Positions 2,395 through 63,662 of a stretch of 64,000 nucleotides of DNA are shown piece after piece. This DNA comes from Candidatus Sungiibacteriota bacterium (GTDB lineage Bacteria > Patescibacteriota > Minisyncoccia > Sungbacterales > HO2-52-23). The notes under the pieces were generated by a model. The model saw only the letters and a program-made list of their open reading frames with translations, ran no database searches and was not told where the DNA came from. The position numbers and the translations under genes were made by a program. The stretch is taken from the NCBI GenBank assembly GCA_016180435.1, contig JACPBG010000001.1:136358-200357 (forward strand). Reading direction: 5' to 3'. Position 1 is the first letter of the stretch, and each line of letters begins with the position of its first letter.

Positions 2395-2415
2395 TCTATA
2401 CAAACGGTGGTTCTC

Positions 2416-2542
2416 AACAAATATGTTTAAAAATCTTCGTGAAATCCCGCCGTGATTTCACTCATCACGGGTCGGCCTCGCTCGTTCGCTTGCGCTCACA
2501 CCATGGCCGCTCGGCCTCCCAGTGTTTTTAAACATATTTGTC
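2416..2542. repeat. Structured repeat family H, copy 1, in the rpoB-rpoC spacer 22 nt upstream of the rpoC start
   Basis: Core ctcatcacgggtcggcctcgct...ggccgctcggcctcccagtg is shared with 52556-52680. It is bounded by the inverted repeat caaatatgtttaaaaa / tttttaaacatatttg. Confidence 0.6.
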
Positions 2543-2950
2543 TCGACCACCTTATTTTGATTTGCCTTATTATTTTAAATCACTATTTTAATAGTTATTT
2601 CGTGAATCTTTAGGTAGAAAATAAAAAATTATTAATAAACCACTTCACTATTGTAGCAACATTCGTCCGCCTTCGCTAAAGCTTCGGCAAGACATCGGCC
2701 TATCTTTATCTAAATAATCTCAACATTGTAACAGGCCTCGCAATAAACTATCTCCATCCTTTCCGGCGCGATTACAAAATCTTTTTTACAATTTTGGCAG
2801 TTTCGCGTTTCCATGTATTTTATCAATGGCCGCCATCGGCGGCTACATTATGCAAATCTCACTTTTTTCTTTTAAGGCGCTGAATGCTGTTTTGCGCGGT
2901 AACCGATATTTTTTGCAAAACTTTTAAGTGAGTCGGGGGAGGGACAATTT

Positions 2951-3085
2951 CGGATACAGTAATTTCAGACAATGGGAGGCAAAATTTGCTTGGTTCGTCC
3001 CGCTAAAGGCGGGACGAAAATTTTGCCGACCCTTAGCGAGGTTTTCGCAGGAAAAACCGAGACGTGTCTGAAATTACTGTATCCG
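2951..3085. repeat. Structured repeat family A, copy 1 (candidate ncRNA / REP-like element), 10 nt past the rpoB stop
   Basis: Outer 21-bp closing stem cggatacagtaatttcagaca / tgtctgaaattactgtatccg. Conserved unpaired cores AATGGGAGG and CGACCCTTAGCGA, two internal hairpins. Same architecture at 38201-38328 and 63457-63593, with compensatory stem changes. Confidence 0.65.
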
Positions 3086-3094
3086 AAAAATGTA

Positions 3095-6000
3095 TCACCG
3101 GGATACCACTTTCGCACGAGCGGCATACTGCCGACCCGGTTTTCGCTCCTCACCGGATTTCGGCGCCGGCACCTCTTTCTTTATCACGCTTACATCCAGC
3201 GCCAATCCTTTCAGCTCATTCACTAAAACATTGAACGACGCCGGAATATTCGGATTTTTAATTTTTTCGCCATTTATAATCGCCTCATACGTTGCCGAGC
3301 GCCCCAAAACATCATCCGACTTTATGGTCAATAATTCCTGCAGAGTATGGGCGGCTCCGTATCCTTCCAATGCCCAGACTTCCATTTCACCGAATCTCTG
3401 GCCTCCAAACTGCGCTTTTCCTCCCAAGGGCTGTTGAGTAATCAGGGAATATGGCCCGATGGATCGCATGTGAATTTTATCTTCCACCAAATGTATCAGC
3501 TTCATAATATATATATTGCCCACCGTGATTTTCCGGCCAAAACGCTCGCCGGTTCTTCCGTCATAAAGCGGAACTTTTCCGTCCTCGGGAAGCCCGGCTT
3601 TTTTAAGCTCGGCTTTTATCTCTTCTTCCGATGCGCCGGCCAGAGCCGGGGTCACGGCCCGATATCCCAATCTTTGAGCGGCCCAGCCAAGATGGGTCTC
3701 CAGAATTTGTCCGAGATTCATACGAGACGCGACTCCCAATGGATTTAAAATAACATCCACCGGAGTTCCATCTTCCAAATGCGGCATATCTTCCACCGGC
3801 AGAATTTTTGAAATAACACCCTTGTTGCCGTGCCGTCCGGCCAATTTATCGCCCACCGCAACTTTACGGAGCTGGGCAACTTCAACCTGCACGCGCTTGA
3901 TCACGCCGGCTTCCAGCTTGTCGCCGCGCTCGCGCGCAAATACTTTAATCCCGACTATCCGGCCCCGCTTGCCGTGCGGCAGACGCAATGACGTATCTTT
4001 GACATCGCGCGCTTTTTCCCCGAAAATCGCGCGCAATAATTTTTCTTCGGGTGTTAAATCGGATTCGCCTTTGGGCGAAATTTTTCCTACCAAAATATCG
4101 CCGGATCTTACCTCGGCCCCTATTCTTACAATCCCGTCCTCATCCAAATTTTTCAATTTTTCCTCTCCGACATTCGGAATATCATGAGTCGTGATTTCCG
4201 GACCAAGTTTAGTGTCGCGCACATCCACCGAAAAATCTTCAATATGCATCGAGGTAAACCGGTCATTTTCCAGCAGACGTTCCGAAAGAATTATGGCATC
4301 CTCATAATTCGCTCCGACCCAGGAAATAAACGCCACAAGCACATTCTGTCCAAGCGCCAATTCGCCGTCGCTAATAGAGGAACTATCGGCCAAAATATCG
4401 CCCTTCTTTACTTTATCTCCGCGATGCGCGACCGGGCGCTGTCTAATAACAGTAAAGGCATTGGTTCGCAAAAACGAAACCAGAGGATACACTTTCATTT
4501 TTCCGTTTTTATCTTTCACCCGAATTTCACGCGCGTCGGATGATTCCACAACTCCCGCATCTTCGGCGAGAATCACTCTCCCGGAATGGCGCGCCGCATC
4601 AACTTCAACTCCGGTCCCGACATATGGAGCATCGGCGCGGACACACGGCACCGATTGGCGCTGCATGTTTGAGCCCATCAACGCGCGGTTGGCATCATCA
4701 TGCTCAAGAAAAGGGATCAGGCTGGTTGCGATGCTAATTGCCTGCTGTGGAGATACATCCATATAATGAACGTCTTTTTTCTCGATAACTCCCGGGTTTC
4801 CATGTATGCGCGCCTCAATACGCCCAAGTGTGATATTTCCATCGTGATCAATATCAATGCCTGCGTGCGCGATATTAACTTTTGTCTCGAATGCCGCATC
4901 CAGATATTCAATCTCCCCGGTAATTTTGCCGTCCGTGACTTTCATATACGGAGTTAGTATAAGTCCGAGATCGCTTAAGCGCGCGTAACCGGACATATGC
5001 CCCACCAGTCCGATGTTTGGCCCTTCCGGCGTTTGAATCGGACAGATTCTTCCGTAGTGCGAAGGGTGCACATCGCGCACCTCGAATCCGGCGCGTTCTC
5101 TTTGCAGTCCCCCGGGTCCCATGGCCGAAAGACGGCGCTTGTGCTCAAGCTCGGACAACGGATTGATTTGATCCATAAATTGCGAAAGCTGGGATGAAGT
5201 GAAAAATTCCTTGACAGACGCCATAAAAGGACGCGCATTTACCAACTGAGCCGGAGTCAGTGTAACCGGATCAAATGTTGACATGCGATCCTTGACAATT
5301 CTTGCCATGCGCGCAACCCCGACCCGTAATTTATTCTGCAAAAGTTCGCCGACGCAACGCACCCGGCGATTTCCAAGATGATCAATGTCGTCTACCGCCG
5401 CGTCCGGCGCATTATTCAACCGGATTATTTCACGAAGAATCGCAGTAATTTCCTCGGCTCCAAGCACACGATCCTTGGGATCTTTTACGTTTTTTTTCAA
5501 ATCAAGGCGCTGATTCAATTTAAAACGCCCCACTTCTGCCAAGTCATATCGATCCTGTCCGAACATAGCGCGAATAAGAGAGCGCGCATTATCCACGGCC
5601 GCAAGATCCCCGGGACGTATGCGCCGGTATATTTCAATAAATGCGTCATCCGCATTTTTGGAAGAATCGCGCTCCAGGGTTTTTCGCATGTAAGATATCT
5701 CTCCGGTATCAAAATCCTTGAAAAGATTGAGTATGGCGTCATTATCAGCCACGCCAAAAATGCGAAGCAGGACCGAAGCCGGCACTTTTCGCTTGCGGTC
5801 GATTTTCACCTGAATTGCGCCGTCCGAATCTGTTTCAAATTCAAGCCAGGCCCCGCGATTCGGAATTACTTTAGCGCCGAATAGTTTTCTGCCTCGATTC
5901 AAATAAGCCGTGAAATAAACGCCGGAGGAACGTATAAGCTGGGAAACCACAACTCGCTCTACCCCGTTTACTATAAAGGTTCCGCGCGGAGTCATTAACG

Positions 6001-6334
6001 GAAAATCTCCAAGGTATACTTCTTGTTCTTTGGCCTCTTTATTTTGAGAGTTAGTCAAACGCACGCGCACGCGAAGAGGAGCTTCATACGAAAGATTATT
6101 TTCCCGGGCTTGCGCTTCCGTATATTTTGGTTCGTCCAAATAATAATCCGCGAACTCAAATGCCAAACCCTGCTCGCCAAACTCCTCTTTAATGGGGGAC
6201 GACTCCCTGAAAAGTTCTTTAAGTCCGATTTTAAAAAACCAGGCATAGGAATTAACCTGTATTTCGGCAAGATTGGGTAAAGAAATTCGTGAAGCGTGAT
6301 AGCGGGAAAAAATTTTTTTGTTTGACAAAAACAT
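3095..6334 (-). CDS. rpoB: DNA-directed RNA polymerase subunit beta
   Basis: 1079-aa ORF with RpoB signature blocks (GPGGL..[61 protein letters not shown]). It lies directly upstream of rpoC. Confidence 0.97.
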   Translation of the reverse strand: [1079 protein letters not shown]

Positions 6335-16897: not shown

Positions 16898-18094
16898 TTA
16901 AATCTTAGCTAGTGCCAACTTTAAATCCTCAATCAAATCCAGAGGGTCTTCCCTGCCGATTGATAATCGCAAGGTCCCTTGAGTAATTTCAGCCTTGGCG
17001 AGTTCTTCTTTAGTCAATTGCCCGTGCGTAGTGGTGGCCGGATGAATCACAAGTGAACGCGACTCACCAATATTTGGCGCATGCCAAAAAAGGCGCAATG
17101 ATTCCAGCACGCGTTTAGCGTCACGTCTTCCGCCTTTTATTTCAAAGGCCATGAGTCCCCCAAAACCCTGCGGCATGATTTTTTTATTCTCCCGCGCACG
17201 GGGACCGAAAGCGGGATAAAATACACGCCGAACTTTGGGGTGCTTTGAAAGAAACCGGGCAACCCTAAGAGCGTTTTTCGAGTGTTCCATGACCCGGCCA
17301 AAAAGCGACTCGGCATGCGATAGAAAAATCGCGGCATTGTCCGGAGACATGCAAGGCCCCAATGTCCTAAACCAACCAAGTCGCATGTCGTCAATCAATC
17401 TTTTCTTCCCGACAATGCATCCGCCGATCACCTCGCCATCGCCAAAATATTTTGAGAGCGAATGCCACACGATATCTGCGCCCCGTTTCAAAGGCTGCGC
17501 CAGAGCCGGGGTTGCCAAAGTGTTATCTATAACCAATTTTATGCCATGACGATGCGCGATTTTAGCAATCGGACGCGGATCAAACAAATCAATAAGGGGA
17601 TTGGATGGATTTTCCAACGCAAGAAACCGGGTATTAGACCGAATGGCGCGTTCCCACTCGTCAAGATCATATGGATTTTCCAGGAGAGTAACCTCAATAC
17701 CAAGTTTCGGGAGCAATTCACGAAAAAGATGCAACACGCCGCCATAGAGCCGGTTAGACGAGACAATATGTCCGCCGCCATTCGCGAGGTGCAAAGATAT
17801 TATAAGAATCGCGGACATGCCGGACGAAGTAGCAAGTCCGGCCTCTGCTCCTTCCAACACTGCGACCCGTTTTTCCAAACGATCAACAGTGCGATTATTA
17901 ATACGGCTGTAAATAAAACCCCCTTCCTTTCCTTCAAAAAGGCGTTTGGCTCGTTCAAAAGATCCAAGGGGGTAAGCAGTTACGCGGTCAACCACGGGCC
18001 GAAGTTCGTGATCTTTGAAATCACCTCCTCCATGTATTTCAAGGGTTCGCGGCCTCAATTTCCATAGATTTTTTGCTGAAAGTTTTTTCTTCAT
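16898..18094 (-). CDS. PLP-dependent Cys/Met-metabolism enzyme (O-acetylhomoserine sulfhydrylase / cystathionine gamma-synthase family)
   Basis: TLEIHGG N-terminal motif, HSLSKYFGDG with the PLP lysine, overall family fit. The track ORF extends to 18163 across the tRNA region, so the start is placed at the internal Met (MKKKLSAK). Confidence 0.7.
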   Translation of the reverse strand: MKKKLSAKNLWKLRPRTLEIHGGGDFKDHELRPVVDRVTAYPLGSFERAKRLFEGKEGGFIYSRINNRTVDRLEKRVAVLEGAEAGLATSSGMSAILIISLHLANGGGHIVSSNRLYGGVLHLFRELLPKLGIEVTLLENPYDLDEWERAIRSNTRFLALENPSNPLIDLFDPRPIAKIAHRHGIKLVIDNTLATPALAQPLKRGADIVWHSLSKYFGDGEVIGGCIVGKKRLIDDMRLGWFRTLGPCMSPDNAAIFLSHAESLFGRVMEHSKNALRVARFLSKHPKVRRVFYPAFGPRARENKKIMPQGFGGLMAFEIKGGRRDAKRVLESLRLFWHAPNIGESRSLVIHPATTTHGQLTKEELAKAEITQGTLRLSIGREDPLDLIEDLKLALAKI

Positions 18095-18103
18095 ATCGGT
18101 TTT

Positions 18104-18160
18104 AATCGCCCCATGGGGAATTGAACCCCGGTTCCTAGGCCCTGCCCTCCCGCCTTTTAC
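18104..18160 (-). pseudogene. tRNA-like 3' fragment (D-arm remnant fused to T-arm and acceptor 3' strand; no anticodon arm)
   Basis: Minus strand: GGGCCTAGGAACCGGGGTTCAATTCCCCATGGGGCGA; T-loop TTCAATT within a GGGG/CCCC stem. Confidence 0.35.
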
Positions 18161-18164
18161 CAAT

Positions 18165-18239
18165 CAGCCTCACCGGGATTCGAACCCGGGTTACCAGGAT
18201 GAGAACCTGGCGTCCTAGACCAAACTAGACGATGAGGCC
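18165..18239 (-). tRNA. tRNA-Glu (anticodon CTC)
   Basis: Minus strand: GGCCTCATCGTCTAGTTTGGTCTAGGACGCCAGGTTCTCATCCTGGTAACCCGGGTTCGAATCCCGGTGAGGCTG. Anticodon stem CCAGG/CCTGG with loop TTCTCAT. Confidence 0.8.
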
Positions 18240-18270
18240 AAAAAGGTGGGAAGGTGAAAGAACCTAGTGT

Positions 18271-18349
18271 CCTAGGCCACTAGACGATAGGGGCATAAAT
18301 CGCCAGAATTTTGGAAAAATCTGGACTAGACCGGACTAGACGACAGGAG
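18271..18349 (-). repeat. Repeat family G, copy 1: tRNA-Glu-like 5' fragment (acceptor plus D-arm) plus upstream region with further D-arm-like GTCTAGT words
   Basis: Minus strand: GCCCCTATCGTCTAGTGGCCTAGG..; about 85% identical to 34318-34395. Confidence 0.55.
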
Positions 18350-18468
18350 TATAAAAAATGGGTCGGTCGGAGCCGTAACGTGTTATATCTCATCATATAC
18401 CATCATCTTACAATGAATAATGATAAATGAGGAGTTATTTTGCAGGAGGTCTATATATTCACCGGACC

Positions 18469-18995: not shown

Positions 18996-19248
18996 GTTAT
19001 TAAATGCGTGGGTTTACCCCACACTTAATTTTAACTGCCGCTTTCGTTTCCATCCAAGGCAAGATGAACATCTGTTAAGAAATGCGGGCGTATCACACCA
19101 GCTTACTCTGGACGGCACGAAAACGGCCTGCCCGCCATATGCCCGTCTCACAAGTAAAGGCGTTACTCGAAACTTCACTGCAGTACTGAACCCCGTCTTA
19201 ACTTCATATACAGGCGTATGGCAGGCGGGTTAAAATTAAGTGTGGGGC

Positions 19249-27644: not shown

Positions 27645-27690
27645 ATTTTTAACTATACCATAGCTTGATATAAATAAAAGCTTACTATTT

Positions 27691-27824
27691 TAGGACTTAC
27701 GCGTTTGATGTCATTCCCGACTTGATCGGGAATCCAGGAAACCCATATTTGCCTAAAATACTGGATTCCCGTTTTCACGGAAATGACAAAAATGGGTCTT
27801 CCCATTCAAACGCGTAAGTCCTAT
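27691..27824. repeat. MITE-like family C, copy 2 (full palindromic form)
   Basis: Terminal inverted repeats aggacttacgcgtttga / tcaaacgcgtaagtcct; inner inverted repeat gtcattcccg / cgggaatgaca. Confidence 0.65.
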
Positions 27825-27908
27825 ATTTAAAAGAATTACAACACTTGATTAAATGTGCCTAATATAGTAAGCTTATGCATATAATTTCCGGAACCGAAGG
27901 AAAGAAAA

Positions 27909-32816: not shown

Positions 32817-32861
32817 ATTCTCCAGTCACAACATCCTTACAAACTTGAGAATGTAAGGATG

Positions 32862-33149
32862 TTATTTTATCCGCCGGAAGGATTCTAAAAATTTAACAAA
32901 CATCTTGCCATAAGGCGAGAGAGCGTGCTCCACGAATTTACCGCGGTATTTTTTATTGATAAGCCCGGCCTGATAAAGCCGCCGGGTGTGTTCTCCAATG
33001 GTTTTCTCGTTGGCTCCGAGTGTTTCAACTATATCCTCCAGGGTAACGCCATCGCGTTCGGATACCAAAAACAATATCTCAATGCGATAGTGATTGGCCA
33101 TCCCTTTAAGATGGCGCTCCATTTGTTTGGCTGTCTTCACCTTCTTCAT
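32862..33149 (-). CDS. ArsR/SmtB-family winged-helix transcriptional regulator
   Basis: 95 aa; MANHYRIEILFLVSERDGVTLEDIVETLGANEKTIGEHTRRLYQAGLI is a typical ArsR HTH. Confidence 0.6.
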   Translation of the reverse strand: MKKVKTAKQMERHLKGMANHYRIEILFLVSERDGVTLEDIVETLGANEKTIGEHTRRLYQAGLINKKYRGKFVEHALSPYGKMFVKFLESFRRIK

Positions 33150-33156
33150 CTCTTTA

Positions 33157-33215
33157 TGTTACACAACATACCAACATTCTCAAGTTTGTAAGTATGATGT
33201 AAATGTGTTGTGACT
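33157..33215. promoter_or_regulatory. Palindromic putative operator upstream of the ArsR gene
   Basis: cacaacat...atgtgttgtg inverted repeat enclosing acattctcaagtttg. Its complement caaacttgagaatgt recurs inside the hairpin at 32823-32855, downstream of the gene. Confidence 0.45.
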
Positions 33216-37532: not shown

Positions 37533-37670
37533 ATGAAACTAAAATTGGTCTTAGGGGTAATTGGGATCTTATTAATTGTCAATCAAATAATCAACTGGAG
37601 TCAGATAGGACTTATAGGTTTTTTCCTTGGTGGTCTTATGCTTGCCGCTTCGTCTGATGAGTTTCTTTAG
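37533..37670 (+). CDS. Small 45-aa membrane protein (below the ORF-track cutoff)
   Basis: AGGAGGAG RBS 3 nt upstream of the ATG (AGGAGGAGaaATG); MKLKLVLGVIGILLIVNQIINWSQIGLIGFFLGGLMLAASSDEFL. Confidence 0.3.
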   Translation: MKLKLVLGVIGILLIVNQIINWSQIGLIGFFLGGLMLAASSDEFL

Positions 37671-37737: not shown

Positions 37738-38076
37738 TTGGGGGGCGGCCACATGAAAAAGTTCAGGATATATCTGATCATTCACCTCATCTGCGGCCTA
37801 TTGGCGCTTGGGATGATACGATTTGCCGGATTTGAAACTGATTATTATCATAGAGGGGAGTCCTTAGAAAATGTACTGACACACATTAATAGCCCCATAC
37901 CAAACATTTTGTTACCAGTTTTCGGTCCACTAGCGCTCGTCACGGTGCCTTTTCTCATATACCTCGTTAATGAAACCGGGCATCCATTATTCGGCGTCAT
38001 GATTACCAAAGATCTTCGCTGGCCGGATTACCATCCTGACTTTAAATCAATCCAGAGTCCGGCAAAATCGCCCTGA
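37738..38076 (+). CDS. Hypothetical membrane protein
   Basis: 112 aa with two hydrophobic helices. Confidence 0.4.
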   Translation: MGGGHMKKFRIYLIIHLICGLLALGMIRFAGFETDYYHRGESLENVLTHINSPIPNILLPVFGPLALVTVPFLIYLVNETGHPLFGVMITKDLRWPDYHPDFKSIQSPAKSP

Positions 38077-38200
38077 TTTTTATCATACCTGACCCTTCGG
38101 GTCATTTTTTTATTTTTCAAAGCGCGGAGCGCTACCTTAATACAAACCGCACTCCCCACACCGAGATGCCGCAAACATCAATAAATGTATAAGGGCGAGC

Positions 38201-38328
38201 GTATCACTATTTCAAAACAATGGGAGGACAAGTTTGCATGGTTCGCCGTCTGCAGACGGCGAAAACTTGTCCGACCCTTAGCGAGTTTTTGCGCTGGCAA
38301 AAACGAGCGTGTTTTGAAATAGTGATAC
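38201..38328. repeat. Structured repeat family A, copy 2, 7 nt past the ftsI stop
   Basis: Closing stem gtatcactatttcaaaaca / tgttttgaaatagtgatac covaries relative to copies 1 and 3. Cores AATGGGAGG and CGACCCTTAGCGA are conserved. Confidence 0.65.
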
Positions 38329-38334
38329 CGAACC

Positions 38335-40062
38335 CTATTTTTCATCCGGCGGTATCTCGTAATAATTCAAAATATACTCCGCCAAATCATGAAACGCCGT
38401 AGTCAGAGTGTTAGCCGCAAAACGATTCCCCGTAGGAGAGTTAAGCTGCAAAAATACCAGAAACTTCGGATTAAACGCCGGCGCATATCCGACAAAAGAA
38501 TGAATTACTTCATCCGAATACCCCCGGCCGTCGCGACGTGGAATTTGAGCTGTGCCGGTTTTTCCTGCCACAAAATATCCTTTAACGCCTGCCCGATTTT
38601 CATATCCTATCCGCACCACGGAAATAAGCATTTTAGTCAGAGTTTCGGCGGTTTCTTTGGAAATCACCTGCCGCACTTCCTGCGGTTCCTTTTTAATTTC
38701 ATTCCCCGAATCATCCACAATTCTTTCAACAACATAAGGCCGCATCAATTTACCCTCATTAGCAATGGCGCCTGCCGCCATCGCCATCTGCAAAGGGGTT
38801 ACGGCGATTCCCTGCCCGAAAGATGCGGTGGCAAAGTCAATTTCCCGCTCCGCGGAAAGATTGGAAATATTTCCGGAGACCTCTCCCGGCAGATCAATGC
38901 CGGTTTTTTCGCCAAACCCAAATTTTTTCAAAAAAGCCCACTGCCGGTCGCGGCCCAATAACCGTGCCACGTGCACCGCCCCGGTATTTAACGATTTTTC
39001 AAGAACCTGAGTCATAGTCTGCGTTTTATAGGTTTTGCCGTCAAAATTTTTAATGGTATAACCCTTGATCTTTATCTCTCCGAAGTCATAATAGGTCGAA
39101 TCCGGACGGACCACGCCATCTTCGATACCTCCGGCCATGGTGATGGGCTTCATAACCGATCCCAATTCATACATTGATTCCGCCGCCGGATTCAAAAAAA
39201 CAGAAAAATCCTTTTCCCTTGAAAAAGCATTCGGGTCAAATGCCGGAGATGAAGCCAGCGCCAGAATTCTTCCGGTCCTCGGCTCAAGAACAATTGCCAG
39301 ACCCCGATCCGCCTCCCATTTTTTTCTATAGGCCGCGAGCACTTCTTCCGTTTTTTGCTGTATATTGTGATCCAGCGTCAAAAAAAGTTTTGATCCCTCT
39401 TTGGGCGGATGGATGATCCGGCGTCCGAGGGCCACCCAAAAACCGGCAGCATCTTTCACGCCCTCAAGCATCCCCTTGTTCCCGGCAAGGTCCGATTCGT
39501 AGTAACGCTCCAATCCGTATCGTCCTTCCTCATCCTCCTGAATCCTGCTGACAAACCCGAGTAAATGCGCAGCCATGGCGCCATACGGATAATAACGCGC
39601 CTTCCCCTCCTCAATATAAATGCCCGGCAGGCGGCGCGCCGCAATGCGCTCAGCCGATTCCCGGCTGATATTTTTTTCTAATACTTCGTAAAAGTCCCCT
39701 TTCTTCCCAAGTTTAGCGAAAATCTCTTCCTGCGGAAGCGATAAGTCCTTTCCAAGAATTTCCGCGAGTTCAGCAGGACTTGCGATGTCTTCCGGGGATG
39801 CAATAACCGCCCAAGACGATCGGCTGATTGCCAATGGTATGGAATTACCGAATTTATCGCCGGCAAAAATGGAACCCCGTTCTGCCAAAAGTTCCACAAC
39901 CTGCCGATGCTGGCGGGACGCGGATTTAACAAAATCCTTATGATCAATAATCTGCAATTGAAAAAGCCTGCCGAGAAGAGCCAGTCCTGCCGTCAAAAAA
40001 AAGAGGAGGATCCAATTCATCCGCCTCCTTATACTTGCGTCAAATTTAGGAATGCGTGGCAT
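38335..40062 (-). CDS. ftsI: Peptidoglycan D,D-transpeptidase (PBP2/FtsI class B penicillin-binding protein)
   Basis: SVMKP (SxxK), KTGTAQ (KTG) and N-terminal TM/dimerisation region; position after ftsL. Confidence 0.85.
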   Translation of the reverse strand: MPRIPKFDASIRRRMNWILLFFLTAGLALLGRLFQLQIIDHKDFVKSASRQHRQVVELLAERGSIFAGDKFGNSIPLAISRSSWAVIASPEDIASPAELAEILGKDLSLPQEEIFAKLGKKGDFYEVLEKNISRESAERIAARRLPGIYIEEGKARYYPYGAMAAHLLGFVSRIQEDEEGRYGLERYYESDLAGNKGMLEGVKDAAGFWVALGRRIIHPPKEGSKLFLTLDHNIQQKTEEVLAAYRKKWEADRGLAIVLEPRTGRILALASSPAFDPNAFSREKDFSVFLNPAAESMYELGSVMKPITMAGGIEDGVVRPDSTYYDFGEIKIKGYTIKNFDGKTYKTQTMTQVLEKSLNTGAVHVARLLGRDRQWAFLKKFGFGEKTGIDLPGEVSGNISNLSAEREIDFATASFGQGIAVTPLQMAMAAGAIANEGKLMRPYVVERIVDDSGNEIKKEPQEVRQVISKETAETLTKMLISVVRIGYENRAGVKGYFVAGKTGTAQIPRRDGRGYSDEVIHSFVGYAPAFNPKFLVFLQLNSPTGNRFAANTLTTAFHDLAEYILNYYEIPPDEK

Positions 40063-41927: not shown

Positions 41928-42195
41928 AGCAGTGATGCCAATCTACGAATTTAATGCCAATCTACAAATTGCGAATTTACGAATCCTCTACTTCCCTCCC
42001 GCCTAATAAGTTAGTAAGTCCTATTTACCCGGCGAGATGATCCGATTTCGAGACCATGATTTGGTCGAGCGGGCATGGTTCCGAGCGAAGCCAAATTTGA
42101 TTTGGCGAAGCGAGGAGAGCGAGACCAAATCCTGAGGTGAGCGAGCACGCCGGGCGAGCGATAGCCGAGTCGAGAAATTGGATTATCTCGTCGGG

Positions 42196-42300
42196 TTATC
42201 CCCAAAACAACTAACTTATCCACAATCTTATCCACTTTTCACCACTTCACTTATATATTATCCCACTTTGATACATTATGCAATGATGTCAACCCACTTT
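42196..42300. promoter_or_regulatory. Cluster of DnaA-box-like 9-mers (TTATCCACA, TTATCCACT, TTATCCCAC, TTATCCCCA) upstream of mraZ
   Basis: Read directly: TTATCCACA at 42216-42224 is a perfect consensus box, with three one-mismatch boxes within 100 bp. Confidence 0.45.
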
Positions 42301-42377
42301 ATTCAAAATAAAAAACGGCTTATCTAAGCCGTTGATCCAAGAATTCATTCACAGGTTTTCCACTATTCAGGAAATCT

Positions 42378-50927: not shown

Positions 50928-52550
50928 ATGAATACCTTGCATGAATTCAAGAATGAACCGCACCTGGACTGGACTAATGAGGAAAACCGAAACGCCATGC
51001 GAAATGCCCTGCAACGGGTAAAAGGCGAGTTCGGAAAATCATATCTGATTATTATTGACGGAGAGTGGTCGCTTGCCAAAAAATCATTTTATTCGTTTGA
51101 TCCGGCGACCTGCAATCCGCGTATAAATCCGCATGGTTTTGATCCAACCCGCGACATAATAGGCATTGCATATACGGCTGGCCCAAATGATATTGACCGC
51201 GCAGTTAGAGTTGCTGAAAAAATAATTACGGAATGGCGCAAACTTGGCGTGGAAAAGCGCGCCGAATTGCTTTGGCGCGCCGCGCAAATCATGCGCGAAC
51301 GAAAATTTGAACTCGCCGCCTGGCTGGTTTATGAAGTGTCAAAATCCTGGGATGAGGCCATAAGCGAAGTTGAAGAAGCGATTGACTTCATTGAACTTTA
51401 TGTCCGCGAGAGTTATTTCTTTTTCGGTGAATTCCCTACGGCATCGCTCAAATCCGAAGAAAATATTCTTACAGCGGTTCCGCGCGGTCCGACTGCCGCC
51501 ATATCAACTTGGAATTTCCCGATCGCTTTGGCAGTTGAAAAAATAGCCGCATCGCTTGTTTGCGGATGTCCGGTGCTTTTCAAGCCGGCGGAACAGGCCT
51601 TTGTATGCGGATGGATGGCGGTTAAATGTTTTCTGGATGCGGGAGTGCCCCCGGAACTTATTGCTTATCTTCCGGGCGGGGATGAAGTTGGCAAAGCACT
51701 GGTAACATCCCGGGGAATCGCGCAAATCGCTTTTACTGGATCGGTTGAGGCGGGCATTGCCATAAATTTGTCCGCCGCCCAAACTCCCGGAAAATTCGGC
51801 ATCAAGGGGTTTGAACCGGAACTTGGCGGCAATAACGCCGTCATTGTTTGCCCGAGCGCCGTGCATGATTCCGCCATACGCGACATCCTGCATTCCAAAT
51901 TCGGCTTCAACGGCCAAAAATGCTCGGCACTGCAACGCCTTATTTTCGTGGGATCGCCGCTGGATTGCACGCCGCGAAAAATATGCGAAGGAGTAATTGA
52001 GGCTGCCAAATCGCTTGAATACGGGCATCCGGAAAATCCGGCTTATCGCCACACCTCTCTCATTGACAACGATGCCTATAAAAAAGTCCTTGAACGAATT
52101 GAGGCCTTGAAATGCTACGCGAATCCTTGTTATGAGCAAATGTTAAAAAAAGTTGATCGCGGGTATTTTGTAGGTCCGATTATTTTTGATAAAATTCCGC
52201 CTCATCTCGGATTTGTTCAGGAAGAAATATTCGGTCCAGTGCTTATGATTTTTTATGCTAGATCCTTGGAAGATGCGGTTTTACTTGCCAATAGCACTCC
52301 CAATGCCCTGACTGGAGGGGTTTTTACGGAGTTGGAAAGCGAGATTGAATACGCCAAACAAAATATTGATGTGGGAAATTTTTACGCCAACCGCCCTATC
52401 ACTGGGGCCATGGTCGGACGCCAGCCTTTCGGAGGATTTAAATTTTCCGGCAATGGCAAAAAAGTGGGGTGTCCGGAACGCCTGAATTTTTTTCTGAATC
52501 AAAAAACAGTGACGATCAACCGCGAGCGCTACGGCGCTTTGCTGAAGTAG
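50928..52550 (+). CDS. Aldehyde dehydrogenase family, likely 1-pyrroline-5-carboxylate dehydrogenase
   Basis: ALDH signatures ELGGNNA and FGFNGQKCSALQR (catalytic Cys); translationally coupled to the PRODH gene (stop/start overlap). Confidence 0.75.
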   Translation: MNTLHEFKNEPHLDWTNEENRNAMRNALQRVKGEFGKSYLIIIDGEWSLAKKSFYSFDPATCNPRINPHGFDPTRDIIGIAYTAGPNDIDRAVRVAEKIITEWRKLGVEKRAELLWRAAQIMRERKFELAAWLVYEVSKSWDEAISEVEEAIDFIELYVRESYFFFGEFPTASLKSEENILTAVPRGPTAAISTWNFPIALAVEKIAASLVCGCPVLFKPAEQAFVCGWMAVKCFLDAGVPPELIAYLPGGDEVGKALVTSRGIAQIAFTGSVEAGIAINLSAAQTPGKFGIKGFEPELGGNNAVIVCPSAVHDSAIRDILHSKFGFNGQKCSALQRLIFVGSPLDCTPRKICEGVIEAAKSLEYGHPENPAYRHTSLIDNDAYKKVLERIEALKCYANPCYEQMLKKVDRGYFVGPIIFDKIPPHLGFVQEEIFGPVLMIFYARSLEDAVLLANSTPNALTGGVFTELESEIEYAKQNIDVGNFYANRPITGAMVGRQPFGGFKFSGNGKKVGCPERLNFFLNQKTVTINRERYGALLK

Positions 52551-52555
52551 TCCGG

Positions 52556-52680
52556 AAACTGCTTTTAAAAATCTTCGCAAAATTCCACCGTAATTTTGCT
52601 CATCACGGGTCGGCCTCGCTCTTTCCGTTTCACGGAAAACCGTGGCCGCTCGGCCTCCCAGTGTTTTTAAAAGCAGATTT
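52556..52680. repeat. Structured repeat family H, copy 2, immediately after the ALDH stop codon
   Basis: Same core as 2416-2542; closing inverted repeat ctgcttttaaaaa / tttttaaaagcag (differs from copy 1). Confidence 0.6.
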
Positions 52681-52801
52681 CCTTCCTTAATGGATTTGCT
52701 TTAAGTTTATGCGGCATTTTCTATGCCGCATTTTTAATTTTTGCATTTGCATACACAATAAAATGTGTTATATTCAACGCAGTTCCTAAAAAAGTTAAAG
52801 A

Positions 52802-53128: not shown

Positions 53129-53156
53129 AACGCGGATTAATCGCGTTTATTTTTTA
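53127..53156 (+). terminator. Intrinsic terminator after the zinc-ribbon ORF
   Basis: aaaaCGCGGattaaTCGCGtttt then tttttt. Confidence 0.65.
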
Positions 53157-53157
53157 T

Positions 53158-53321
53158 TAGACCTACTGCACAAAGATTTTCGTCACGAAATTTCAGAATT
53201 TCGAGGCAAAATCGCTGAATAAACTTTGCGGCCTATCGGCCAAGATAAGCCAAAAAGTTTTGAAGCGATTTTGGCCGAAATTCTGAAATTGCAGTAGATT
53301 AATCTTTGCGCAGTAGGTCTA
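53158..53321. repeat. MITE-like family B, full-length palindromic copy (about 164 bp, 22-bp terminal inverted repeats)
   Basis: tagacctactgcacaaagatt ... aatctttgcgcagtaggtcta; the terminal cta provides the TAG stop of the minus-strand ORF 53319-53573. Confidence 0.7.
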
Positions 53322-53573
53322 TTCAACTCCTCCGACTTTTTCCACAATAGCGCGGTTAATTTCATCTTCAGTGGCGCCTTCGGGCAAACCGAGTTCTTTG
53401 ATCAATTCTTCGCGCTCCTTTCTTTCTTTTCGCTCTTGCAATTTTTCAAACGGCAAAACTTTGACTTTTTGTCCGGGCTTTTGCCCGGATTCCGGTAGCG
53501 GCTTTTCTTTCCGCTGGCGGTATTCATCAAGGTTCACGACGTTTTCGAAATTATTTTGAGGAGTTTTTTCCAT
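53319..53573 (-). CDS. Hypothetical small charged protein
   Basis: 84-aa Lys/Glu-rich ORF. Confidence 0.35.
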   Translation of the reverse strand: MEKTPQNNFENVVNLDEYRQRKEKPLPESGQKPGQKVKVLPFEKLQERKERKEREELIKELGLPEGATEDEINRAIVEKVGGVE

Positions 53574-57180: not shown

Positions 57181-57252
57181 TCCTCCCACCTGGAATCGAA
57201 CCAGGACCAACGGCTTAAAAGGCCGCTGCTCTACCAATTGAGCTATGGGAGG
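57181..57252 (-). tRNA. tRNA-Lys (anticodon TTT)
   Basis: Minus strand: CCTCCCATAGCTCAATTGGTAGAGCAGCGGCCTTTTAAGCCGTTGGTCCTGGTTCGATTCCAGGTGGGAGGA. Anticodon loop CTTTTAA. C1-G72 pair. Confidence 0.8.
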
Positions 57253-57267
57253 ATAAATTTTAGTACG

Positions 57268-57290
57268 GGACCAATTGAGCTATGGGAGGG
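57268..57290 (-). pseudogene. Duplicated tRNA-Lys 5' fragment (acceptor plus D-arm, about 23 nt) 15 nt upstream of tRNA-Lys
   Basis: Minus strand: CCCTCCCATAGCTCAATTGGTCCC. Confidence 0.5.
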
Positions 57291-57292
57291 AA

Positions 57293-57832
57293 TTATGATC
57301 TCCGCCATTCGGATTTATTGCCCTTGCGCTGATTTTCTGCCATTGCCAGCTCATCATATATACCGTCAATAAGCCGATAGTTTTTCGCCTCCTCAAGAGT
57401 TACCCAACGAAATTCGTCGGTCTCATCCGGTTTAAGCGCAACTTCGCCCGATTGATAATCAGCGAGGCATGAAATAACCAAAGATGGATTTCCATCGCCA
57501 TGCACAGTAGCCAAACTTGTAACATAGGCAATGTTCGCAATATTCAATCCGACCTCCTCTTTTACTTCGCGCCGCAAAACTTTTTCCAGCACATTATACC
57601 AATAATCGGCAGTATCTTTGGGTAAATTAATGTAATCATTGATTTCCAACTTGCCGCCCGGAACAGTCCACATTCCCGGAAAACGTTTTTTGTTAGATGA
57701 ACGCCTCGTAATCAAATACTTTCCGTTTTTTACAATGATAGCGGTAATTACTACTTCGTGAAGATGCTGATTTTTATTATCCATATTTTTAAAATTTTTG
57801 GGGGGTGGGTTTTTTAAGCCGAAGCGTACCAT
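57293..57832 (-). CDS. Nudix hydrolase
   Basis: Nudix box G(x5)E(x7)REVKEEVGL present. Confidence 0.75.
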   Translation of the reverse strand: MVRFGLKNPPPKNFKNMDNKNQHLHEVVITAIIVKNGKYLITRRSSNKKRFPGMWTVPGGKLEINDYINLPKDTADYWYNVLEKVLRREVKEEVGLNIANIAYVTSLATVHGDGNPSLVISCLADYQSGEVALKPDETDEFRWVTLEEAKNYRLIDGIYDELAMAENQRKGNKSEWRRS

Positions 57833-60099: not shown

Positions 60100-60104
60100 A
60101 GTAG

Positions 60105-60247
60105 AGTTTGGTGAATAATAAGATTAAGCCAATTTTATTCTTCGAGCCTGTCGAGAAGTACATTATGGATTAAGGTAATTTCTCGACGCGCCACTGTCAC
60201 GGCTTGCTCAAAAAATAACCTATTTTATGCATTATTCACCAAACTCA
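60105..60247. repeat. MITE-like family E, full-length palindromic copy
   Basis: Terminal inverted repeats gagtttggtgaataat / attattcaccaaactc around ttcgagcctgtcgagaagtacattatggattaaggtaatttctcgac. Confidence 0.65.
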
Positions 60248-63296: not shown

Positions 63297-63456
63297 TTAC
63301 TATATATTTAAATCCCCACCACGTGGGGATTTAAATATATTCATACTTAACTTTTCTTCTTAAGGCGCATGCCGTGTATGAACTTACTATCAAGATAATT
63401 CGGTCGAGGCAATATGATTTTGAAACAAAAGCCCCCAGTGAGTTATTGCGGCTTCG

Positions 63457-63593
63457 TATATTGTAATTTCAGACAATGGGAGGACGCGAAAGCTTGGTCC
63501 GAGCACTCAAAAATTTTGAGTGCTCGGTTTCGCGTCCGACCCTTAGCGAATCCCGCGCTGGACGGGACGAGTCGTGTCTGAAATTACAATATA
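63457..63593. repeat. Structured repeat family A, copy 3, 70 nt past the groEL stop
   Basis: tatattgtaatttcagaca ... tgtctgaaattacaatata closing stem. Conserved AATGGGAGG and CGACCCTTAGCGA cores. Internal hairpins differ from the other copies with compensation. Confidence 0.65.
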
Positions 63594-63662
63594 CGAGAGC
63601 CGCGTAAGCGAGTAAACGTGTTTCAAAATCATGTTGCCGAGTAAACCGAATTATCAAGTCCA

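Follow-up and report, generated by a model that had tools for sequence, protein, structure and literature searches.

The elements that sit just behind rpoB, ftsI and groEL in the window, by which we mean the whole 64-kb stretch of DNA analysed, belong to an undescribed, Patescibacteria-restricted family of structured, strand-specific and mobile repeats with at least three subtypes. The members are non-coding and ca. 140–330 nt long, and our literature searches returned no description of such a family. What had been described as a three-copy family has six members of three subtypes in the window according to the covariance model (R1), making up ca. 1.5% of the sequence (Table 1). Such structured repeats sit inside core operons, i.e., in the rpoB-rpoC spacer, within the dcw cluster and behind groEL. 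Patescibacteria have tiny, dense genomes and, to our knowledge, few known mobile elements. The original prediction had taken compensatory pairing as the mark of a functional RNA rather than a transposon; this opposition fails here, with sites that are empty, filled or replaced and copies that are nested or truncated. Covariation and mobility both hold for this family, and covariation alone is therefore no proof of host function.

Anatomy, subtypes and distribution

The three A1 copies were found where they had been predicted, with one shared architecture and perfectly complementary arms. Their closing stem had been put at 19–21 bp; the pairing within each copy is indeed perfect, but the arms measure 24 nt in copy 1 (2948-2971/3065-3088), 19 nt in copy 2 (38201-38219/38310-38328) and 22 nt in copy 3 (63454-63475/63575-63596). 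The motifs AATGGGAGG and CGACCCTTAGCGA are identical in all three, and the 13-mer invariant motif does not occur elsewhere in the 64-kb window. The third predicted motif is also present, but its variable position reads CGAG(A/T/-)CGTGT and not (A/C). Fold stability of the three copies was far above that of dinucleotide shuffles on either strand (z = -10.6 to -13.5).

Table 1. Family members in the window, parts of copy 1, and modules found upstream of the A1 copies.
Feature	Position	Strand	Basis or remark
A1 copy 1	2948..3088	+	R1 covariance model, 135.1 bits; noted originally as 2951-3085
A1 copy 2	38196..38333	+	R1, 116.4 bits
A1 copy 3, inner Y-shaped unit	63452..63598	+	R1, 125.8 bits
Nested rod enclosing copy 3, 262 nt	63394..63655	+	Minimum-free-energy fold, inverted repeat I11
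A2 member, ACACUGGGAGGCCGAGCGGCCAUGG...GAGCGAGGCCGACCCGUGAUGAG...CGAAG	2412..2546	-	R1, 36.1 bits, E = 1e-6; inverted repeat I17
A2 member abutting the stop of an aldehyde dehydrogenase gene (50928-52550, +)	52550..52685	-	R1, 41.6 bits; Pfam
A3 member, ACCAUGAUUUGG...GGGCAUGG...CCUGAGGUGAG	42032..42191	+	R1, 28.1 bits, E = 1.5e-4
Copy 1, P1	2948-2971/3065-3088
Copy 1, J1/2 = AU	2972-2973
Copy 1, P2a/b = GGG-A-GG+8 bp	2974-2987 with 3018-3032
Copy 1, bulge GCTTGGT, 7 nt	2988-2994
Copy 1, apical hairpin P2c	2995-3017
Copy 1, J2/3 = TTA	3033-3035
Copy 1, GC-GA-G + P3, loop CGCAGGA	3036-3064
Copy 1, 5' module	2828..2857	+	GC hairpin 2828-2843, TACATT 2844-2849, ATGCAAAT
Copy 2, 5' module	38121..38146	+	Hairpin AGCGCGGAGCGCT, TACCTT 38133-38138, AATACAAA
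Copy 3, 5' module	63385..63399	+	TACTAT, CAAGATAAT; directly before the outer rod, without hairpin

Read on the strand on which it was originally written, the A1 unit consists of a closing stem of 19–26 bp (P1) beneath a three-way junction. The strand J1/2 is AU and J2/3 is UUA. P2 has GGG-A-GG followed by 8 bp, a 7-nt bulge (GCUUGGU) and an apical hairpin of free sequence (P2c), its return side being 8 bp plus CC-GA-CCC, while P3 is built of GC-GA-N and 5 bp, a CGCWGGA loop and the return side N-GA-G(N)C, and is separated from P1' by a single G. The unpaired junction bases are invariant, as is the tandem G·A at the base of P3, and ca. 40 unpaired or core bases of the unit do not change.

Many copies have extra helices beyond P1, joined by CGAG/CGAG (tandem G·A) loops, and for this reason the unit exceeds 135 nt. 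The alternative joint of the outer helices is the loop GG-UCGAGG/CCGAGGGAA-CC. A standard k-turn would need the bulge on the other side of the G·A pairs; this reading was rejected, and the joint is simply called a conserved asymmetric G·A loop here. The pattern CGAG...CGAG brackets P3, P1 and each of the outer layers, and nesting is located exactly at such sites. Copy 3 is enclosed by a nested rod of this kind, with outer helices at 63394-63403/63646-63655 and 63408-63427/63619-63638 and with UCGAGG/CCGAGUAAA and AGUGAGU/AGCGAGU loops as joints; the rod leaves 7 nt to the stop codon of groEL. The same layered build is found at loci L012, L017 and L082.

The subtypes are distinguished by the motifs AAUGGGAGG ... 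CGACCCUUAGCGA (A1), ACACUGGGAGG ... CCGACCCGUGAUGAG ... CGAAG (A2) and ACCAUGA..GG ... GGGCAUGG ... CCUGAG (A3), and bulge and loop read GC and CGC in A1 vs. CC and CGG in A2. One A2 member shares the rpoB-rpoC spacer with copy 1, in the opposite orientation and 16 nt upstream of the rpoC start. The A3 member lies in a leader, between a cluster of TTATCCAC repeats and mraZ. Rod-only relatives with stacked CGAG loops occur as well. We noticed one (L036 ~2400-2640, equivalent to the reverse strand of L010) with three stacked helices and CGAG-type loops between them, which replaces the lost 3' half of an A1 copy directly upstream of clpB.

Relatives were collected with an exact pattern joining the two invariant motifs. 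It retrieved 26 loci from reference genomes, all of them Patescibacteria MAGs (Parcubacteria GW2011_GWA2_45_30, whose FtsI is 83% identical to that of the window, and others), and 70 loci from metagenome contigs, mostly of groundwater type. The same search gave no locus in viral contigs, phage records or plasmid records, and a phage or plasmid origin was discarded on these grounds. Rfam 15 run over the whole window at gathering score recovered four tRNAs and nothing else. At E ≤ 10, the A1, A2 and nested copies gave only chance matches to miRNA and snoRNA models, far below threshold, so that the elements fall in no Rfam family at either setting.

The window contains other inverted-repeat elements (19017-19247, 27669-27883, 60104-60246, 53153-53326 and 32823-33205), with perfect arms of 16–19 nt or long imperfect ones, whose cores have nothing in common with family A; palindromic repeats of several families are present in this genome.

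Covariation and the strand that folds

The family has a conserved secondary structure of the single-strand or RNA type, with true compensation far above controls. A MAFFT alignment of 23 copies, scored against the structure written by hand, had 90.3% of its cells paired vs. 65% after shuffling and 39–47% when the structure was slid along the alignment, and changes on both sides were seen at 38 of the 48 pairs. For a second set of 72 distinct copies these figures rose to 92.1% and 47 of 48, in an alignment made with, and fitted to, the covariance model, which therefore leans towards the structure. Both the covariation score and the percentage of paired cells exceeded all of 500 shuffles, in the one alignment as in the other, and over both the slid controls stayed at 38–49% against the observed 90–92%. 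Within P1, conservation is partial over the inner ca. 10 bp, and the 12 or more bp outside them are free to change with compensation. The invariant cores of the original prediction were confirmed, and its compensation of paired regions was borne out also among the wider homologs.

The pairs that depart from Watson-Crick rules are distributed unevenly between the two strands. Over the 72 distinct copies the folding strand has 89 G·U vs. 35 A·C and 154 G·A vs. 14 C·U, and an independent register-based count in 27 copies gave 26 G·U vs. 11 A·C, plus 34 G·A cells. The positions of the G·A pairs are fixed; in almost all cases CGAG faces CGAG, and other copies have Watson-Crick pairs there. This asymmetry shows that the fold is selected on the strand on which it was originally written; deamination of cytosines on an exposed strand would be expected to produce the opposite bias. 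The 20 copies that abut a convergent stop codon show the same tendency (G·U:A·C 19:7, G·A:C·U 39:2), which means that the mRNAs of those genes carry the poorer complement. The folding strand is antisense to the adjoining gene in two thirds of the copies, including all three A1 copies of the window, and however the neighboring genes are oriented, it is the same defined strand that retains the fold. A role as 3'-UTR stabilizer of rpoB, ftsI and groEL, as originally proposed, is not supported by a fold selected on the antisense strand.

Genomic context and mobility

We examined 63 distinct A1 copies with clear surroundings. The right-hand gene is convergent in 35 of them, with its stop codon at a median of ca. 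9 nt from the 3' end of the element, and co-directional in 17; where the left-hand gene is co-directional, the stop codon is 3–50 nt away in 7 of 14 cases. Stop codons are hugged in either orientation. Some members are instead in 5' leaders or upstream of genes, the A3 member before mraZ being one example.

By Pfam, copy 1 adjoins rpoB, copy 2 the gene of a PBP transpeptidase (FtsI) and copy 3 the C-terminal end of groEL. These were the genes named by the original prediction, but the gaps between stem and stop codon, reported as 7, 10 and 70 nt, come to 6, 6 and 66 nt when counted from the coordinates, the last one being 7 nt if the outer helices are included. Copy 1 sits in a 700-nt rpoB-rpoC spacer, as rpoC starts at 2395. 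This spacer is unusually long and holds two family members in opposite orientations, and the product of the rpoB gene itself (3095-6334, -), with 1079 aa, is a short beta subunit by bacterial standards. Copy 2 is flanked by a small convergent ORF on the + strand, with its own terminator (38090-38104), and by the ftsI stop codon at 38335. Between ftsI and murE we also noted two small hydrophobic ORFs (37533-37670 and 37753-38076, +) with a promoter-like site and that same clean terminator; they are missing from the same spacer in the relative L012, and a duplicate of the murE start region adjoins them.

The flanks of all the collected loci were compared pairwise. One orthologous site is empty in L018, which has a 10-nt spacer there, and filled in L064, where the insertion stands in place of the stop codon and the two codons before it. 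L069 and L035 have no element in the mraZ leader; the window has the A3 member there, and in L082 a different, A1-like member occupies exactly the A3 spot, with an additional three-layer A1 close by that points the other way. Behind ftsI, both the window and L035 carry an element, and L012, the closest relative among the collected loci (FtsI 83% identical), has no more than a simple terminator hairpin. The family is therefore mobile, with orthologous sites that are empty, filled or refilled by another subtype. Truncated or disrupted relics (L010 5773-5855, L002 near 4600) and nested copies also occur. One orthologous pair of copies is identical at 139 of 140 positions over flanks that are 83–93% identical.

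The hairpin P2c can be swapped wholesale for an unrelated one between copies that are ca. 92% identical elsewhere, as estimated from the alignment; one such replacement is seen at 63495-63527 of the window vs. L012 and L017. Comparison of L003 and L009 suggested that P2c might be a terminator hairpin already resident at the target, but this found no support at the ftsI site and was dropped. No target-site duplication was visible at the three filled/empty comparisons, where the flanks are only 65–90% identical, and the CGAG repeats at the flanks more plausibly belong to the element itself than to a target duplication. Nor did the collected loci contain autonomous copies, split halves with an ORF or a recurrent propagating enzyme: clustering of their 708 ORFs yielded housekeeping families only (FtsI, RsmH, MraZ, MreB, ClpB, EF-G and similar).

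Some insertion/deletion variants in otherwise 100% identical sequence (L010 vs. L072 and L036) were set aside as assembly differences that affect coding sequence and not the element. Around ~1425 of L010, the contig of a public MAG, 132 nt present in the metagenome contig L072 are missing, comprising the C-terminal Fe-S motif of an endonuclease III-like gene and its terminator; this gap is probably an artefact of assembly or binning.

Next to the A3 copy and just upstream of mraZ (42195-42330) there are direct repeats TTATCCAC(A/T)/TTATCCCC resembling DnaA boxes, a cluster conserved in L069, L035 and L082. A replication origin was considered here and rejected, the adjoining gene being mraZ; since the GC skew does not switch at these repeats, an operator for MraZ or DnaA at the dcw promoter is likelier.

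A 5' module precedes part of the copies on the folding strand (Table 1). Its motif was found up to 130 nt upstream of 25 of 87 copies, vs. 2–7 of 87 at three control positions, and a related pattern placed the module at 19 of 94 copies, and at 2 of the 20 that lie between two co-directional genes. The listed modules usually comprise an A-rich tract, a GC hairpin of free sequence, TAnnnT and AAGAAAA (further examples are L010 1490-1535 and L016 60-110). The module falls within a segment present in L082 and missing in the window. In TAnnnT the positions T1, A2 and T6 are invariant, and L083 and L028 have TATAAT-CAAGAAAA in this slot, which together is the conservation pattern of a -10 box; the module may thus be a promoter of the element's own transcript. 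No -35 box was found for it, a sigma-70 scan around the copies gave no convincing -35/-10 pair, and TTAAGA of the module was rejected as a -35 box because no -10 box lies at the correct spacing. The rpoB promoter of this organism reads TTGACA-17-TAAACT. The hairpin after the A-rich tract, present in most copies with a module, has the appearance of an intrinsic terminator of the opposite strand. Neither strand has a U-run or T-run directly after the rod, which does not have the form of an intrinsic terminator, and a minority of copies have, 6–90 nt from the rod, an independent small hairpin with its T-run on the opposite strand.

What recognizes the fold

We lean towards the view that the element is recognized in a single-stranded form, most likely its own RNA, and that the fold is read by the machinery that propagates it. 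The copies would then probably promote their own spread rather than serve the adjoining genes. Each element forms a long rod, P1 often being extended outwards by helices with CGAG/CGAG joints and topped by the three-way junction, the bulged P2 and the P3 with its conserved loop. The invariant tandem G·A of P3 and the conserved asymmetric loop of the outer helices are RNA-like motifs that agree with this view. The RNA would be transcribed from the element itself, possibly from the upstream TAnnnT box in the quarter or so of the copies that have one, and the recognizing agent would be the propagation machinery. The location beside rpoB, ftsI and groEL would follow from the compactness of these genomes, which would tolerate insertions only within a few bases behind a stop codon, and the very stable hairpin gained by the neighboring mRNAs would be a by-product. 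Against an exclusive role of RNA counts the fact that G·T and tandem G·A are tolerated in folded DNA too, and the near-perfect stems and the swaps of P2c could reflect a palindrome-correcting process at the DNA level instead of selection on RNA.

The main rival of this reading, which we regard as possible though doubtful, is a non-autonomous element like REP/BIME or IS200/IS605, moved as folded ssDNA by a tyrosine HUH transposase. In that case the CGAG at either side of each rod would not be tandem G·A of an RNA but the tetranucleotide that is cleaved or targeted. The established movers of small palindromic repeats in bacteria are HUH enzymes, and the palindromes of REP/BIME-RAYT and IS200/IS605 resemble our elements in being short, non-coding, multi-copy and extragenic, with hairpins near gene ends, in being recognized strand-specifically as a folded single strand and in leaving no target duplication. 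A strand-specific fold with tolerated mismatches, the 2:1 orientation bias relative to the gene and to the direction of replication (the + strand of the window has a GC skew of -0.08 and most genes are on the - strand), the failure to see target-site duplications, and the CGAG tetranucleotides around P3, P1 and all outer layers, with nesting exactly there, all fit such an element. However, the three A1 copies of the window fold on the leading-strand template, and IS608-type elements use the lagging-strand template. CGAG is also absent from the junctions of the empty sites, whose flanks are only 65–70% identical. REPs are imperfect palindromes of ~20–40 nt with a conserved GTAG head, whereas here a rod of 140–330 nt has stems of free sequence, and its three-way junction with invariant bases is unlike any known REP or IS200 end. 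Across ~750 kb of DNA around the copies, only a small part of each genome, no tyrosine HUH enzyme (RAYT or TnpA) was seen, and REP size and sequence are not matched either.

Two other kinds of DNA element were compared. Like the MITEs (Neisseria Correia, enterobacterial ERIC and pneumococcal BOX elements), the family is interspersed, gene-less, polymorphic for presence or absence and nested; co-transcription with the neighbors as long hairpins, and in some cases a promoter, are features of these MITEs that our family may share. Those elements, however, have terminal inverted repeats conserved in sequence and a target duplication (TA for Correia), while here the arms vary with compensation, the unpaired core is conserved and no duplication is seen. 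Measured as classical DDE-type MITEs, the copies are multiple, without an ORF and polymorphic, and lack the sequence-conserved terminal repeats. Integron attC sites share the conservation of structure over sequence, the single productive strand, the antisense position relative to the upstream gene and the location immediately 3' of genes. But attC is a simple bulged hairpin with R and L boxes (R''-L''...L'-R', GTTRRRY) in cassette arrays beside intI; no such boxes were found here, and the neighbors are scattered chromosomal core genes (rpoB, ftsI, groEL, mraZ).

We judge it unlikely that the copies are non-coding RNA genes of the cell with an independent function, among them a new class of self-cleaving ribozymes, mobility being secondary. 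The compact three-way junction, with J1/2, J2/3 and J3/1 invariant, would suit such a gene, as would the conserved bulge of P2 (GCUUGGU) and loop of P3 (CGCNGGA), which could dock together, the one orthologous copy that is more conserved than its flanks and the possible promoter. There is a resemblance to type III hammerheads and other small ribozymes, in which a three-way junction is closed by the 5'/3' stem, the stems covary, the junction strands are invariant and two other arms carry a conserved bulge and loop; these are also multi-copy and often in mobile DNA. At its base, P3 has a G-C pair flanked by the tandem G·A, an arrangement with an equivalent in hammerhead stem II. Still, relaxing Rfam to E ≤ 10 brings up no ribozyme or other RNA family beyond the chance matches mentioned above, and a search by eye (hammerhead, twister, pistol, hatchet) agreed with Rfam and with the original prediction that no known ribozyme core is present. 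Where the hammerhead core would have CUGANGA/GAAA/UH, A1 has UUAGCGA/GAG(N)CG and A2 has GUGAUGA/GAAG, i.e., the GAAA is missing. Covariation between bulge and loop was not found within A1, the copies are dispensable at orthologous sites, and many of them are truncated.

A mobile version of this idea strikes us as equally speculative. The Y-shaped rod would be a mobile RNA gene with its own TAnnnT promoter, and its core a new catalytic or protein-recruiting module, either self-cleaving or a handle for RNA-templated copying. If so, it would be the first SINE- or retrozyme-like repeat family propagated through RNA in bacteria with reduced genomes.

Structured hairpins with box C/D-like purine motifs are known from CPR bacteria as TIGR stem-loop guide RNAs and IS110 bridge RNAs, which have unpaired guide segments in internal loops and form arrays beside a Nop-domain or IS110 protein (PMC12045711). 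Subtype A3, which reads AUGAUGA...CUGA, is similar to them. In our family, by contrast, the internal loops are 2x2 G·A pairs and the variable parts are all paired. A guide function was rejected, as there are no unpaired guide segments and the outer part of P1, P2b and P2c match nothing else in the window; the ORFs of the collected loci included no Nop-domain or IS110 gene, nor was there an array beside the copies.

Least probable is the proposal that accompanied the original prediction, a cis-acting 3'-UTR stabilizer, terminator or RNase III site for the highly expressed upstream gene, which would agree with the hugging of stop codons, a hairpin very stable on either strand and, in many copies, though a minority, read in the sense of the gene, a hairpin plus U-run after the rod, but which has against it the pairing quality selected antisense to the gene in two thirds of the copies, the lack of a U-run directly after the rod, the copies in 5' leaders and before start codons, the sites of relatives that are empty or differently filled (as after ftsI in L012, with its plain terminator), and the position of copy 1 inside the rpoB-rpoC unit, where termination would harm.

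If the core is catalytic, or the handle of a propagation enzyme, a new class of RNA or a new transposition system would be present in an uncultured phylum. The ca. 100 natural variants of one fold make the family a tractable case for the recognition of repeats by shape.

The tRNA genes of the window include some that look split or duplicated (57253-57300 and 18085-18360). A second copy of the 5' part of tRNA 57181-57252 lies immediately upstream of that gene, in the region 57253-57300, and further tRNA-like halves flank tRNA 18165-18239. Such tRNAs may be intron-containing or rearranged genes, of the kind reported for Patescibacteria (PMC13011429).
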